This document shows positions 23,781 to 46,305 of a stretch of DNA of 64,000 nucleotides, piece after piece. The notes under the pieces are model-generated. The model was not told where the DNA came from, did not search any database, and was given only the letters and a program-made list of their open reading frames with translations. The stretch is taken from assembly GCA_050012255.1 (NCBI GenBank), contig JBEKHN010000007.1, forward strand, positions 32,001-96,000. The letters run 5' to 3'. The stretch is from Candidatus Bathyarchaeia archaeon (GTDB lineage Archaea > Thermoproteota > Bathyarchaeia > Bathyarchaeales > Bathycorpusculaceae). Each line of letters starts with the position of its first letter. The stretch's first letter is position 1. The position numbers and the translations under genes were made by a program.

Positions 23781-24086
23781 TTAGGCGGCTTCTGTTTCTT
23801 CTTCTGCTGTTTTCATCGTCTCTTCGGCTGGTAATCCCTTGGCTGAACGTTTCGCTACTACGCCGAGTTTTGTGACTGGCGTGTAGGCCCCGCCCGTGTA
23901 GGTGAACCCGCACTTTCTGCACTTCCAGACGCCGACGCTTTCTCTCTTGACTCTGAGGAATCCGCATTGTGGGCACCGGTGAGGTTTTCTCATTCCTTCC
24001 ATTACTTTGATGTAGCGTTTTCTCACCGTGGAGCCGTAGCGAGGTCCCAGGCCTCGTGCGAGTCCGACTTTCTTAGTTCTCGGCAT
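23781..24086 (-). CDS. rpl37ae: 50S ribosomal protein L37Ae (eL43)
   Basis: GPRYGSTVRK, CPQC, GVWKCRKC, GGAY. Confidence 0.97.
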   Translation of the reverse strand: MPRTKKVGLARGLGPRYGSTVRKRYIKVMEGMRKPHRCPQCGFLRVKRESVGVWKCRKCGFTYTGGAYTPVTKLGVVAKRSAKGLPAEETMKTAEEETEAA

Positions 24087-41823: not shown

Positions 41824-44511
41824 ATGACACAGAAACACCTGGAGGATTTTCCGCCCAAGGAACAGAGACCTTCGACTGAAAAGAAAGTTGACTCTGGGCC
41901 ATTGGCAATCGGCGAGCTTGGAATGGGAGAAAGGAGAAAGCGCGTCTTTCCCCCGCTTGCTCCTGAGAACTTACCATGCTCATACTTTGTCTCAGCCACC
42001 TATGACGGGAGGGCTGGCAAGGCAGTAATCAAACTCTATGAACCAATTTCGGGCCAGATCTACTTCTGGTATGACAACACAGGCCACCAACCGTACTGTC
42101 TCACAAACCTTTCGCAGTATGAGCTTGAAAAAATCAGCCGTGTAATTCAACACCCAGGCTTCGACCGTTTTGAGATTGTGGAAAAATTTGACCCGCTGCT
42201 AGACAGGAAGGTGAAGGTCACGAAAATAGTGACCAAAGATCCGTTGGCTATCGGCGGCCGACCTACGGGATGTATTAGGGACATAATTCCAGAGGATTTC
42301 CCAAATGTCTCGGACTCGCCGGTTGCATCGCAAGATATCAAAGTCTGGGAGTCAACGATAAAGTACTACCAATCCTACATTTACGACCGGCAACTTCTGC
42401 CTGGAATGATTTACGAGGTAAGAGACTGTAACCTCGTCCTGAAAAGGCTGGAAGAAGCCGACAAGACCGTGGACCAGATTCGAGGAACCTTCAAGGACGC
42501 GACTGATGAAGAGTTGGAATTCATCGAAGAATGGGCAAGACTGCTGGAATACCCTGCTCCCAAGTTTCGCCGCGTGGCCCTCGACATAGAAGTGTTGGCC
42601 CCAATCCCTACAAGAGTACCTGACCCCCGCGAAGCAGCTTGCCCGATTATATGTGTTTCACTCTACAGTTCAGATGGACTAAAGAAAGTCTTGCTCCTGA
42701 AACGCGAAGGAGTCCGCGAGGGAACGGAGCACCTGTCCGCGGATGTGAGGCTTGAAAGTTTTGATTCAGAGGAGAAACTTGTAAGGTCTGTTCTTGACGC
42801 GTTGTGGGACTATCCTTTCGTCCTAACTTTCAACGGGGACGACTTTGACCTGCCATATTTGTTCCACCGCGCGCTGAACCTTGGCATCAGACGAAACGAG
42901 ATCCCAATAGAAGTTGGCAAAAGATCCTGCTCGCTGAGTTACGGAGTTCACGTTGACCTGTACAAGTTTTTCTTCAACCGTTCAATTCAGATTTACGCTT
43001 TCAACAACCGTTACAGGGACGTGACGCTGAATGACATTGGAAAAGCTCTGATCGGACTTGAAAAAGTGCCGCTCGACAAGACTCTAGGCGAGTTAACTTA
43101 CACCGATCTTGCCGAGTATTGCCTCAGAGACTCTGAAATCACTTTCAGACTTACAAGTTTTGAAGACGAACTCGTCATGAAGCTGATCCTCGTTCTTGCA
43201 AGAATCAGCAGCATGCCGATGGAAGACGTGAGTCGACAAGGCGTCTCTCGCTGGATAAGAAACTTTCTGCAACGGGAGCACCGCAAGAGGAACATGCTCA
43301 TCCCGAATCCCATAGACATACTCGCAACGAAGGGCAAAACCGCAACGAAAGCAATCATAAAGGGCAAGAAATACAAGGGAGCAATAGTCGTCGAGCCTGT
43401 GCCAGGAGTGTACTTCAACGTCGCTGTCATGGATTTTCCAAGCCTGTACCCGTCAATCATCAAAGTGTGGAACCTAGGCTACCAGTCCATATTGTGTCCA
43501 CATCCCGAATGCCGCGGCAACGTCGTTCCAGGCACGCCAAACTGGGTTTGTACCAGGAAACGAGCGTTAGAGAGCCTGTTGATCGGTTCGTTGAGAGATC
43601 TGCGTGTGCAGTGGTACAAGCCTAAGACGAAAGACAAGTCTCTCAGCACAGATTTGAGAAGCTGGTACAACATCACTCAGGGAGCTCTTAAAGTCATCCT
43701 GAACGCGAGCTACGGAGTCTTCGGAGCTGAAAGCTTTGACCTCTACTGCCCACCAGTGGCTGAGGCAACAGCAGCCATCGGAAGACACTCAATAACACAG
43801 ATACTCAACAAAGCAGAACAGTTGAGCATCCAAGTGCTCTACGGAGACACGGACAGCCTCTTCCTGAAAAACCCTTCAAAACAGCAAACTGAAGAACTGG
43901 CACACTGGACAGAACACGAACTTAAAATGAGCTTGGACGTTGACAAGGTTTACAGGTACGCAGTTTTCAGCTCCCGCAAAAAGAACTATCTCGGAGTCTT
44001 TGAAGAGGGAACGGTTGACGTCAAGGGGTTGACAGGAAAGAAGAAACACATTCCAATTCTCATCAAGAAAGCCTTCGACAAAATGAAGGACCGCCTCGCA
44101 CAGGTCAAAACTCCGACAGATTTTGAAAGGACAAAGAAGAACATCGGCGAAATTGTCCGCGAATGCTACATGCAGTTGAGGAGGCGAGAATGGGAGAACC
44201 TCAACGAATTAGCGTTCAACGTGGTCCTAGGCGAAGAAATCGGACACTACACAAAGACAACTCCCCAACACGTTAAAGCCGCAAAGATTCTACAGGAGAA
44301 TGGTGCGGAGCTGAGAGCCGGGGACCTCATAAGCTTCGTCAAGACGACCAGGGAGCCACACGTGAAACCAGTTGAGTTGGCGACTAAGAACGAGGTCGAC
44401 GTTGACAAATACGTAGCCTACCTGCATTCGACGTTTGACCAAGTCCTAGATGCGTTGGGTCTGGACTTTGACGAAATAATAGGACTGACGAAACTGGAGA
44501 GATTCATGTAA
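41824..44511 (+). CDS. polB1: Family B DNA polymerase, crenarchaeal PolB1 type
   Basis: ExoI DIE, FNGDDFDLPY, DFPSLYPS, KVILNASYG, YGDTDS; N-terminal YDG...KLY...DNTGHQPY. Confidence 0.96.
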   Translation: MTQKHLEDFPPKEQRPSTEKKVDSGPLAIGELGMGERRKRVFPPLAPENLPCSYFVSATYDGRAGKAVIKLYEPISGQIYFWYDNTGHQPYCLTNLSQYELEKISRVIQHPGFDRFEIVEKFDPLLDRKVKVTKIVTKDPLAIGGRPTGCIRDIIPEDFPNVSDSPVASQDIKVWESTIKYYQSYIYDRQLLPGMIYEVRDCNLVLKRLEEADKTVDQIRGTFKDATDEELEFIEEWARLLEYPAPKFRRVALDIEVLAPIPTRVPDPREAACPIICVSLYSSDGLKKVLLLKREGVREGTEHLSADVRLESFDSEEKLVRSVLDALWDYPFVLTFNGDDFDLPYLFHRALNLGIRRNEIPIEVGKRSCSLSYGVHVDLYKFFFNRSIQIYAFNNRYRDVTLNDIGKALIGLEKVPLDKTLGELTYTDLAEYCLRDSEITFRLTSFEDELVMKLILVLARISSMPMEDVSRQGVSRWIRNFLQREHRKRNMLIPNPIDILATKGKTATKAIIKGKKYKGAIVVEPVPGVYFNVAVMDFPSLYPSIIKVWNLGYQSILCPHPECRGNVVPGTPNWVCTRKRALESLLIGSLRDLRVQWYKPKTKDKSLSTDLRSWYNITQGALKVILNASYGVFGAESFDLYCPPVAEATAAIGRHSITQILNKAEQLSIQVLYGDTDSLFLKNPSKQQTEELAHWTEHELKMSLDVDKVYRYAVFSSRKKNYLGVFEEGTVDVKGLTGKKKHIPILIKKAFDKMKDRLAQVKTPTDFERTKKNIGEIVRECYMQLRRREWENLNELAFNVVLGEEIGHYTKTTPQHVKAAKILQENGAELRAGDLISFVKTTREPHVKPVELATKNEVDVDKYVAYLHSTFDQVLDALGLDFDEIIGLTKLERFM

Positions 44512-44524
44512 GGCTTTGCAGTCA

Positions 44525-45079
44525 TTAATTCTCTGAAAGCGTTTTCAATCCATGTGATTTCAGTGGTTCAATGATGCTGGGTCTGCTCAGTATTCGCAGA
44601 ACCGCGTAACCTATCACTGCGATAGCGACGAGACTGCTGACCAAAAGGCTGATCAGCGTCGTGATCCAAGCTGGCAAGAACGCGAGCTCTGCAGGTTGAT
44701 AAGGAAAGGATATCCACAGATACCCGCCCCCAACGATGATTCCTATAGGCGAAGCACCTGCGATGCATGCTAGCAACTTATGCTTCTTCAGTAACAATAC
44801 GAGGCTTGCCGCCATAAGATTGGCTAGGGAACCGAAGACTACGTCAATGAACCCTATGGGTCCGAAAACATTAACAACAGCGCATCCGGCAGTGACTCCA
44901 ATAACGACAGGCAATCCTAACAAAGCAGCTAATGCGATCAGAAAGTCTGAGAGCCGCAATTGTATAGGTCCATAGATTGAAGGATTTCCGAAAGGAGAAA
45001 ACGACTGTGCCAAGTTGATCGTGGCGTACAATGCTGCAAAAACGGCTGTCAACGCCAAGTCTCTACTGTCAAATCTTAT
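44525..45079 (-). CDS. queT: QueT-family (COG4708) transporter S component; probable ATA start
   Basis: AVFAALY...SIYGPIQLRLSD...GVTAGC...N...G..DVVFG; GGAGGTGA lies 4 nt before the in-frame ATA at 45079. Confidence 0.85.
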   Translation of the reverse strand: MRFDSRDLALTAVFAALYATINLAQSFSPFGNPSIYGPIQLRLSDFLIALAALLGLPVVIGVTAGCAVVNVFGPIGFIDVVFGSLANLMAASLVLLLKKHKLLACIAGASPIGIIVGGGYLWISFPYQPAELAFLPAWITTLISLLVSSLVAIAVIGYAVLRILSRPSIIEPLKSHGLKTLSEN

Positions 45080-45146
45080 CCTTTCACCTCCTGCGCCGGG
45101 ATTTCTATGGCGGAACGGGTGGAGGTCCACTCACCCGCCTTGCACC
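45080..45146 (-). promoter_or_regulatory. Structured 5' leader of queT (riboswitch candidate)
   Basis: GCGGGT/ACCCGT hairpin with ACCTCC in the loop, complementary to the SD GGAGGT; CGCC/GGCG hairpin before the SD; TTTAATAA box ~26 nt upstream. Confidence 0.55.
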
Positions 45147-45289
45147 TAAGAAGACCACAGATGTTTATTAAACATTGCTGAGACTCGCATACTAGCATTC
45201 ATCGCATGAGCGTTCAGGATAGAAAATCAGGCTGAGGCCATCAAGCAGACTTCACAAGCAGTCGCCGAAGACCGCATCACAGTATTTGC

Positions 45290-45351
45290 TGCAGAAAAAA
45301 ACCGAGGGGGGTAGACGTGTTAGACGAGTAAAAACGCGAAACAGGGAATGT
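45290..45351 (-). repeat. Dispersed intergenic repeat, copy C (degenerate, inverted)
   Basis: Reverse strand CATTCCCTGTTTCGCGTTTTTACTCGTCTA...C-run...CTGCA. Confidence 0.75.
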
Positions 45352-45429
45352 TAACGGATCGATGGAGAAACGCGTAGCAAGAAGTAACCGTGGGACATCA
45401 ATAAGCGCCGTGAAAACACGTTTCAAACA

Positions 45430-46305
45430 CTATTTCAACATTAACAATCTGAGAACGAGAGCAACAGAAGTTGACGCTGCGACCAAAAGCGAGACCAGCA
45501 ACACCACCTGCCGCTCGGTCAAGGAACGATGAAACGTGAGAAGGGTGACCAAGCTTCGCCTGTGATCTGAGGACAGCTTTTTCCCATCAAAAGAGACAGC
45601 GGCCTTGGCTCTATAGATGAAGAAAGTCAGCAATATCAACGCAGAATTGAAGATGTAGGGCAGAACAGACACGACCAGGTCCAACTTCAAATCCGATATG
45701 ACCCCGAAAGAAGCCAACGTCATCCCTATGGTGAAAGACCCCGTGTTGCCAACGAAGATCTTCCCCTCAAAGTTTAGAGCAGCAAGGATAAGCCACACGA
45801 CCAGAGGAACGTAAAGCAATACTCCATTTGACCCTGACATAGCCATCAACCCGATCATAATTATCGCTGGACAGACTGTCTCCAAACCGTTCAACCCGCC
45901 CAGCTGATTCACCGTATTCGTCACTATCGTCACAAGCACCGGAACTATCACAAGGTAGTACCACACTCCGAAGTCGACCGTACCCAACAATGGAATTGCG
46001 ATATACGTACGAACTAGGGGAGTGTGATACGCGAAGGCAGCAAGAGGCATTGCAGCAACCAGAGGAAGAAACGCTTTGAAACGCCACTTTAGATCTATCC
46101 AGTCATCCAGCAATCCCATGAAGCCTCCGAACAACACGCACACGGCCAGCGTCAAGGGCGGAGAAACCCCGTTTGAGACTTTGACAATGTCTAAAGAGTA
46201 CAGGAGAAACAAGTACACAACGCTGATCAGGACGTAGAAGATACCGAGGCCGTTAGAAACCAAAGGCTTGTTTGGTTTGTGCAGGTCAGGAGCCTTAGGA
46301 AACAA
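45430..46305 (-). CDS. Glycosyltransferase family 4 (AglH/GPT/MraY-like polyprenyl-phosphate HexNAc-1-P transferase)
   Basis: DLHK, GLLDD, N.VN.LGGLNGLE, KIFVGNTG; adjacent to aglB. Confidence 0.85.
   Translation of the reverse strand: MFPKAPDLHKPNKPLVSNGLGIFYVLISVVYLFLLYSLDIVKVSNGVSPPLTLAVCVLFGGFMGLLDDWIDLKWRFKAFLPLVAAMPLAAFAYHTPLVRTYIAIPLLGTVDFGVWYYLVIVPVLVTIVTNTVNQLGGLNGLETVCPAIIMIGLMAMSGSNGVLLYVPLVVWLILAALNFEGKIFVGNTGSFTIGMTLASFGVISDLKLDLVVSVLPYIFNSALILLTFFIYRAKAAVSFDGKKLSSDHRRSLVTLLTFHRSLTERQVVLLVSLLVAASTSVALVLRLLMLK

Follow-up and report, generated by a model that had tools for sequence, protein, structure and literature searches.

The queT locus and its leader

The stretch of DNA analysed here (the window) comprises 64,000 nucleotides from a genome of Candidatus Bathyarchaeia archaeon. 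On its minus strand, a leader of about 56 nt (45139-45084) separates the start of a QueT gene from a TATA-like box, and the neighbours of this gene encode a family B DNA polymerase, a GT4 glycosyltransferase and an STT3/AglB homolog. The features of the locus are compiled in Table 1. All of the sequence strings quoted in the initial annotation of this region were found on the minus strand, including a CGCC/GGCG hairpin and the segments GGCGG (45139-45135) and CCGCC (45113-45109), and the TATA-like box that it had placed upstream of the leader is present there. Its assignment of the downstream gene to QueT agrees with the Pfam match, and a check of the sequence confirmed that the loop ACCUCC (45126-45121) is the exact complement of GGAGGU (45091-45086) in the Shine-Dalgarno (SD) segment. 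The open reading frame list had queT begin at a GTG at 45130, a choice that is less well supported: the ATG, GTG, TTG or (in some cases) ACG starts of the orthologs align instead with an ATA codon, which backs the ATA named as the start in the initial annotation. As a single sequence the region folds unremarkably, with a minimum free energy z-score of -0.25 and 69 of 200 shuffled sequences folding equally well, so that the window alone would prove nothing.

Table 1. Features of the queT leader region, with positions in the window
Feature	Position	Strand	Remarks
TATA-like box TTTAATAA	45172-45165	-	25 nt to the first G of GGCGGG (45139)
Spacer, 25 nt	45164-45140	-	between TATA-like box and leader
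P1 5' strand, GGCGG plus G8	45134-45139	-	partner 45114-45109; outer pair covaries
Junction U9-R10-R11 (UGA here)	45131-45133	-	U invariant; purines GA, AG, AA or GG (alignments A1, A2)
P2 hairpin, GUGG-ACCU-CCAC	45119-45130	-	anti-SD CCUCC at 45125-45121, across loop and 3' strand
J2/1, CCGUU	45114-45118	-	C24 C25 G26 would form the 5' strand of PK1; possible pair of U28 with G8
P1 3' strand, CCGCC	45109-45113	-	covariation of P1
A-rich linker	45101-45108	-	variable length, conserved AAA at its end (alignment A1)
Conserved CCCGG	45096-45100	-	C44 G45 G46 would form the 3' strand of PK1
Shine-Dalgarno GGAGGUGA	45084-45091	-	partner of the anti-SD
Spacer, 4 nt	45083-45080	-	between GGAGGUGA and ATA
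ATA, probable near-cognate start codon of queT	45077-45079	-	7 nt past GGAGG; from alignment with orthologs
queT, 184 aa from ATA	44525-45079	-	predicted 7-deazaguanine transporter S-component; PF06177, E 2.2e-24

Conservation and distribution of the leader

Leaders of queT were collected across archaea, as had been proposed with the initial annotation, and the leader proved to be conserved among orthologs. A search with the QueT protein gave matches in 51 of 61 related genomes, and at 28 of the best 30 QueT loci the same leader lies directly upstream of queT. At the other two of these loci, L025 and L030, it is located about 1.2 kb upstream of queT in front of a first QueT paralog, the order being QueT paralog, an open reading frame with a QueC-like C-terminus (recognized by eye) and then queT. 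At 25 of these loci, all picked on protein homology only, identity to the window reaches 88% in the 44-nt core, as compared with 63% in the 45 nt upstream of it and 65% over the initial 330 nt of the gene. This conservation across orthologous loci indicates that the leader is more than a chance arrangement.

An IUPAC pattern of the core was scanned over one genome per prokaryotic species and matched at least 120 stretches. Among the 80 stretches listed with names, 50 belong to Bathyarchaeia or Bathyarchaeota (carriers of the motif include Ca. Bathyarchaeum tardum), 11 to Nitrososphaerales, Nitrososphaerota or Thaumarchaeota, one to Methanomethylicota and two to genomes recorded only as archaeon, with the remaining 16 in Bacteria, mostly of high GC content. 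Of 120 such stretches, 99 were accepted as genuine copies, 89 of which passed an automatic filter while 10 were restored on inspection by eye; 21 matches from high-GC genomes were rejected as chance, scoring at most 25.9 bits with covariance model R1 against 75.6 for the window. By these sequence matches, the leader is common to three classes of Thermoproteota, namely Bathyarchaeia, Nitrososphaerales and Methanomethylicota. Searches with R1 detected the motif in 52 of the 61 relatives. A sample of 151 genomes from across the phylum yielded it in 28, and several families of this sample had no copy among the genomes searched (0 of 19, 0 of 13 and 0 of 13, for example). Within the 61 relatives the motif and QueT occur together in 50 genomes, QueT alone in one (G054), the motif alone in two (both times before queT2-queC) and neither in eight. 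Two weak R1 matches, at 23847-23896 of the window (11.7 bits) and on contig C11 of the window's genome (15.5 bits), were treated as noise.

Secondary structure of the leader RNA

The structure was derived from an alignment (A1) of 122 distinct sequences, from which seven duplicates had been dropped. RNAalifold applied to A1 independently predicts the stem P1, GGCGG(G)/(U)CCGCC, with the hairpin P2, GUGG-loop-CCAC, nested within it. Together with PK1 (below), these helices have pairing nucleotides in 98.0% of the alignment cells, and 19 cells carry a double change, a number that none of 500 shuffles reached (2.9 in shuffled alignments), although the relatedness of the sequences means that such tests overstate significance. 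The outer pair of P1 is GC in 103 of the 122 sequences, GU in eight, UA in five, AU in two and CG in two; pair U13-A22 of P2 is UA in 112 sequences and CG in six, and an extra P2 pair occurs as GC (36), GU (9) and AU (4). Covariation thus supports a P1 stem of 5-6 bp enclosing the small hairpin P2. Residues C24, C25, G26 and U28 are invariant in A1, in part by construction, since 92 of the 122 rows were gathered with a search pattern that fixed many core positions, these among them.

We propose in addition a pseudoknot helix, PK1, modeled between the CCG of the junction and the CGG of the 3' tail; its nucleotides can pair in 98.9% of cells, and it never varies and therefore has no covariation. 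An observation on the adjoining columns U27 and C43 (45115 and 45099 in the window) is that C43 is changed to A only where U27 is A as well, a joint change that occurs in two separate lineages of A1 (L016/L020 and L036/L090). These two residues would adjoin each other at the end of the proposed PK1 helix.

The arrangement drawn in the initial annotation was different, with a first hairpin GCGGGU/ACCCGU, a second small hairpin CGCC/GGCG before the SD and a GGCGG/CCGCC pairing described as an alternative to both. The first hairpin can pair in 97.8% of cells and excludes P1 and P2, but it has no double change, and thus no compensatory evidence for a conserved stem. The second is present in the window, but pairs in only 79.2% of cells, with one of its pairs unpaired in 66 of 121 sequences, and its residue C33 covaries with G3 of P1. 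The GGCGG/CCGCC pairing is present and does compete with the two hairpins, as had been stated; it is not the alternative, however, but the conserved stem P1, the outer pair of which covaries. In the window, P1 and P2 together have a calculated energy of -16.1 kcal/mol as compared with -12.2 kcal/mol for the two hairpins. With P1 and the nested P2, the topology would be nearer to that of an H-type pseudoknot into which an anti-SD hairpin is inserted, with docking as in preQ1-III, than to the one resembling preQ1-II that had been suggested.

Co-variation of the anti-SD and SD sequences

The pairing of the hairpin loop with the SD, which was also part of the initial annotation, is supported by the way in which the two segments vary across the copies. 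The anti-SD, formed by the loop and 3' strand of P2, is supported by the aligned sequences as changing together with the SD: where it reads CCUCCC the SD is GGGAGG in 31 of 38 cases, as compared with 5 of 57 for plain CCUCC, whereas CCUCCU is accompanied by AGGAGG in 6 of 6 and CACCUCC by AGGAGGUG in 8 of 10. In rows with enlarged loops the complementarity extends to 8 bp, as in UCACCUCC/GGAGGUGA and CCACCUCC/GGAGGUGG. The mean duplex energy is -12.93 kcal/mol for matched segments and -11.73 kcal/mol (sd 0.15) for permuted partners, and none of 2000 permutations reached the observed energy, a significance that is again overstated for related sequences. In the window, the duplex of the anti-SD with the tail is calculated at -12.8 kcal/mol and P2 alone at -3.5 kcal/mol, so that the former can outcompete P2 alone.

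More distant copies found with R1 have other complementary segments in these places. Copies L175 and L176 have UUCCG/CGGAA, located directly before the AUG, and copies L177 and L178 have CCACC/GGUGG; in these last two the QueT core starts about 150 nt past the motif, and the paired segment may not be the ribosome-binding site. Copies L179 and L180 have lost P2 and the CGG, and a CCCUCC segment abuts CCGUU opposite GGAGGG. From these sequences, PK1 and the anti-SD helix appear to be merged into a single helix in L179 and L180, and PK1 as such is absent.

Genes following the leader

In 120 distinct copies the first gene downstream encodes QueT in 114 (106 by Pfam and eight by tblastn), a QueE-like radical-SAM protein in four, QueC in one (by Pfam), and an unknown 285-residue membrane protein without family match, followed by QueC, in one. 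For ten first open reading frames to which Pfam gave no family, tblastn or inspection of the frames served as a second check, and two more loci, outside the 120, were too short for their first gene to be classified. For the QueE-like proteins the top five NCBIfam matches are all QueE models, at E-values of 1e-25 to 1e-31, and these matches stay below the equivalog cut-offs. The leader is therefore tied to genes of 7-deazaguanine metabolism, and the operons that it precedes include queE-queC (L051, from Nitrososphaerales, and L117), queE followed by an amidotransferase::QueC fusion (L113), queC-queT (L085) and queT2-queC (L183, L184 and the window's own genome).

Two of these loci contain unusual proteins. 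At L113 (5240-6691, plus strand), a 484-residue protein in which QueC (TIGR00364, E 1.8e-45, residues 257-460) is fused to an N-terminus resembling glutamine amidotransferases is encoded 3' of the motif-controlled QueE-like gene; it presumably resembles the GAT-QueC proteins proposed for archaeosine synthesis. At L073 (5727-6581, minus strand), the motif stands before the 285-residue membrane protein noted above; searches of Pfam and NCBIfam assigned this protein to no family, and it could be a different 7-deazaguanine transporter. At a further locus, L028 (G027:C2:90851-91453), queT is split by an in-frame TAG and the leader is degraded, with broken pairs in P2, a G.U pair in P1 and a score of 57.5 bits as compared with about 75 for a typical copy. 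Here the gene and its switch seem to be decaying together.

The window's genome itself contains a second copy of the motif (locus L151; G000:C1:32833-32895, minus strand; 79.2 bits), which precedes the gene for a 159-residue QueT paralog (PF06177, E 7e-17) followed by queC (PF06508, E 7e-66). In this genome, which is 98.5% complete, tRNA-guanine transglycosylase (TGT) is present, and searches for PTPS/QueD (PF01242) and for QueE found neither. One weak QueE-like match was set aside as the activase that adjoins an anaerobic ribonucleotide reductase gene, an identification made by eye on the translation. Given the presence of TGT and QueC, QueD and QueE not being found, and queT2-queC lying under the motif, the gene content suggests that the organism probably scavenges preQ0, and perhaps 7-carboxy-7-deazaguanine (CDG), as opposed to synthesizing 7-deazaguanines de novo. 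PreQ0 is 7-cyano-7-deazaguanine, the free-base precursor of archaeosine.

Putative promoter and transcription start site

TATA-like hexamers were matched 108 times in the 121 distinct upstream regions, and 92 of these matches end 20-31 nt before the first G of the motif. Archaeal TATA boxes are usually located at -26/-27 from the transcription start site, and from this distance and the observed spacing the start site is predicted to lie a few nucleotides upstream of P1. Metatranscriptome contigs from two studies, which are 90-95% alike to the window, cover queT (44500-45129), and both stop at 45129 without a loose end. The available data are contigs only, the ends of which cannot define RNA ends, and the common stop is taken as a weak hint against a long upstream leader; as a true 5' end, for which it would likewise be a weak hint, position 45129 would lie 10 nt inside the motif and P1 could not form. 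A further metatranscriptome run (X18), with contigs from other organisms, covers the conserved core only and has loose ends on both sides.

Comparison with known preQ1 riboswitches

No Rfam 15 family matches the leader in a search of positions 44400-45800 of the window at E<=10, including preQ1-I (RF00522), preQ1-II (RF01054) and preQ1-III (RF02680), and the same was true of 14 other motif loci at E<=1. This agrees with the view in the initial annotation that the sequence is distinct from the known preQ1 classes. A match to sR30 at 45613-45686 of the plus strand (13.9 bits, E 1.4) was dismissed as chance.

There are nevertheless points of likeness to all three classes, as these are described in the relevant parts of a review (PMC11625349). 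The preQ1-I aptamer is a small H-type pseudoknot, as is proposed for the leader, and it consists of a P1 of 5 bp, a 3' linker rich in A and a further short helix to which the 3' tail gives rise; genes of the queCDEF type and transporters are under its control, and it also binds preQ0 (PMC11625349). Unlike the leader, it is about 34 nt long and lacks an inserted hairpin, and where preQ1-I has a ligand-reading C before the 3' strand of P1 the leader has an invariant UU, so that the junction residue adjoining P1 is U28 and not the C that reads preQ1 in known classes. The preQ1-II motif (COG4708/queT) is likewise found upstream of queT, with the SD fully sequestered in the pseudoknot (PMC11625349), but it is restricted to Bacillota, its conserved nucleotides differ from those of the leader, and its extra hairpin before the SD (P4), for which a counterpart was drawn in the initial annotation, is not conserved here. 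In preQ1-III from Faecalibacterium, a 3' SD docks on an anti-SD in the loop of a scaffold hairpin (PMC11625349), which is also the arrangement proposed for the leader, and this class exerts translational control over genes of the 7-deazaguanine pathway, as is proposed here. However, preQ1-III is a bacterial class whose aptamer, a pseudoknot of the HLout type, has about 100 nt, whereas the leader has about 56 nt in what would be an H-type-like arrangement and its anti-SD overlaps the 3' strand of the hairpin. By analogy, the fold resembles a preQ1-I-like H-type pseudoknot that carries an anti-SD hairpin in its first loop, with a docking like that of the P4 loop and SD in preQ1-III.

Proposed mechanism and alternative explanations

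Taken together, the alignments make a strong case for a functional structured leader. It is a conserved 5' leader with a covarying structure, it precedes genes of a single metabolite pathway across lineages, and its putative expression platform overlaps the aptamer. We interpret it, with a probability of roughly 0.7, as a cis-acting riboswitch of a new structural class that probably responds to preQ0, or to a closely similar 7-deazaguanine, by shutting off translation. Transcription would begin a few nucleotides before the motif, and P1 (GGCGG/CCGCC, plus the G.U pair) would close a junction that holds P2. The 3' tail, comprising the A-rich linker and CCCGG, would then fold back so that its CGG pairs with the CCG of the junction, forming PK1 and hence an H-type pseudoknot. 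Docking of the tail would set the SD beside the anti-SD of P2, and a second helix, PK2, would form at the expense of P2. The ligand, bound at the junction of P1 and PK1, would stabilize this docked state and block ribosome binding; in its absence the tail would be free, and queT, or elsewhere queC or queE, would be translated.

The case for preQ0 as the ligand is good but indirect. The bacterial preQ1 riboswitches control queCDEF, queT and yhhQ, according to the passages on their genes (PMC11625349, PMC5372724), and archaeosine is described as being made in archaea from preQ0 and not preQ1 (PMC5372724, PMC4770233). From the likeness of the gene set and the archaeal use of preQ0, feedback by preQ0 would be the most economical reading. 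The same RNA switch could instead respond to another ligand of the pathway, namely CDG, preQ1, archaeosine as base or nucleoside, or guanine. The gene content of the window's genome, with QueC and TGT present and QueD (PF01242) and QueE not found, and the copy controlling queT2-queC would fit the import of CDG, and the invariant U28 in place of a C leaves the mode of recognition undecided. Against this, copies of the motif control the steps before preQ0 (queE, queC) together with import, as is common where an end product exerts feedback, the free end product in archaea is given as preQ0 (PMC5372724), and no queF was noted among the genes linked to the motif; another ligand is accordingly judged unlikely.

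Other explanations do away with a ligand-sensing RNA altogether. The leader might be the site of an RNA-binding repressor protein that locks the anti-SD/SD helix, and such strong sequence conservation would also fit recognition by a protein. In the operons examined, however, no conserved regulator gene lies beside the copies, the gene neighbourhoods of the motif differ widely across the three or more classes in which it occurs, and a small pseudoknot with an A-rich linker is typical of aptamers of the preQ1 and SAM-II types, as far as these are treated in PMC11625349, all of which makes a repressor protein quite improbable. A constitutive mask of the SD, an RNA thermometer or a stability element would need no ligand either; pairing of the anti-SD and SD could in itself lower translation of a membrane protein, and the 17 copies with a near-cognate start codon point to low expression as well. 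We consider this very improbable, since about 25 invariant unpaired nucleotides would be needless in a simple mask and since such a mask would not be confined to the leaders of queT, queC and queE. Archaeal repressors often bind right after the promoter, and the position of the motif downstream of the TATA box is what a DNA operator for a transcription factor would have. On the other hand, G.U wobbles and one-strand compensatory changes preserve its pairs, the loop varies together with a partner at the ribosome-binding site, at a distance of 30 nt, and the motif is without dyad symmetry of the operator kind, so that an operator is the least probable of the explanations considered.

The riboswitch reading has a more specific form, which we favor by slightly better than even odds: that this would be the first riboswitch class confined to archaea and the first with preQ0 as its natural ligand, acting on salvage (through two QueT paralogs) and on synthesis (queE, queC) by means of an SD/anti-SD pseudoknot, widespread in Bathyarchaeia, Nitrososphaerales and Methanomethylicota, and governing the scavenging of CDG or preQ0 where QueD and QueE are lacking. 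Searches of the main texts of openly accessible papers found nothing on a preQ1 or preQ0 riboswitch in archaea. A 2017 survey lists very few riboswitches in archaea (TPP, fluoride, and occasional FMN, Mg2+-I and guanidine-II), all of classes first found in bacteria (PMC5473149), and where a 2024 review deals with the classes of the preQ1 family it mentions bacterial phyla alone, with no occurrence of the word 'archaea' counted in its text (PMC11625349). From its sequence and structure, the leader looks like a new structural class of 7-deazaguanine riboswitch that hides the ribosome-binding site, and few regulators of this kind are found in archaea. If it is a compact and abundant class restricted to archaea, these organisms would have evolved or kept metabolite-sensing RNAs of their own, and the leader would represent a fourth fold for the sensing of 7-deazaguanines. 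It could then serve as a genetic marker for salvage of preQ0 or CDG in uncultured Bathyarchaeia and as a small ligand-controlled translation switch for archaeal genetics.

Start codons of the genes following the motif

Among 123 distinct leaders, the following gene starts with TTG, GTG or ATG in 96 (45, 29 and 22, respectively), and inspection by eye gave ATA in three, ACG in eight and CTG in six. Near-cognate starts thus seem to be frequent in the motif-controlled genes, at 7-9 nt past the SD; in addition to the window, they were noted at loci L014, L016, L024, L027, L048, L072, L078 and L095 as well as L096, L105, L117, L125, L127, L143 and L149. At two of these loci, L072 and L149, a stop codon stands directly before the CTG start.
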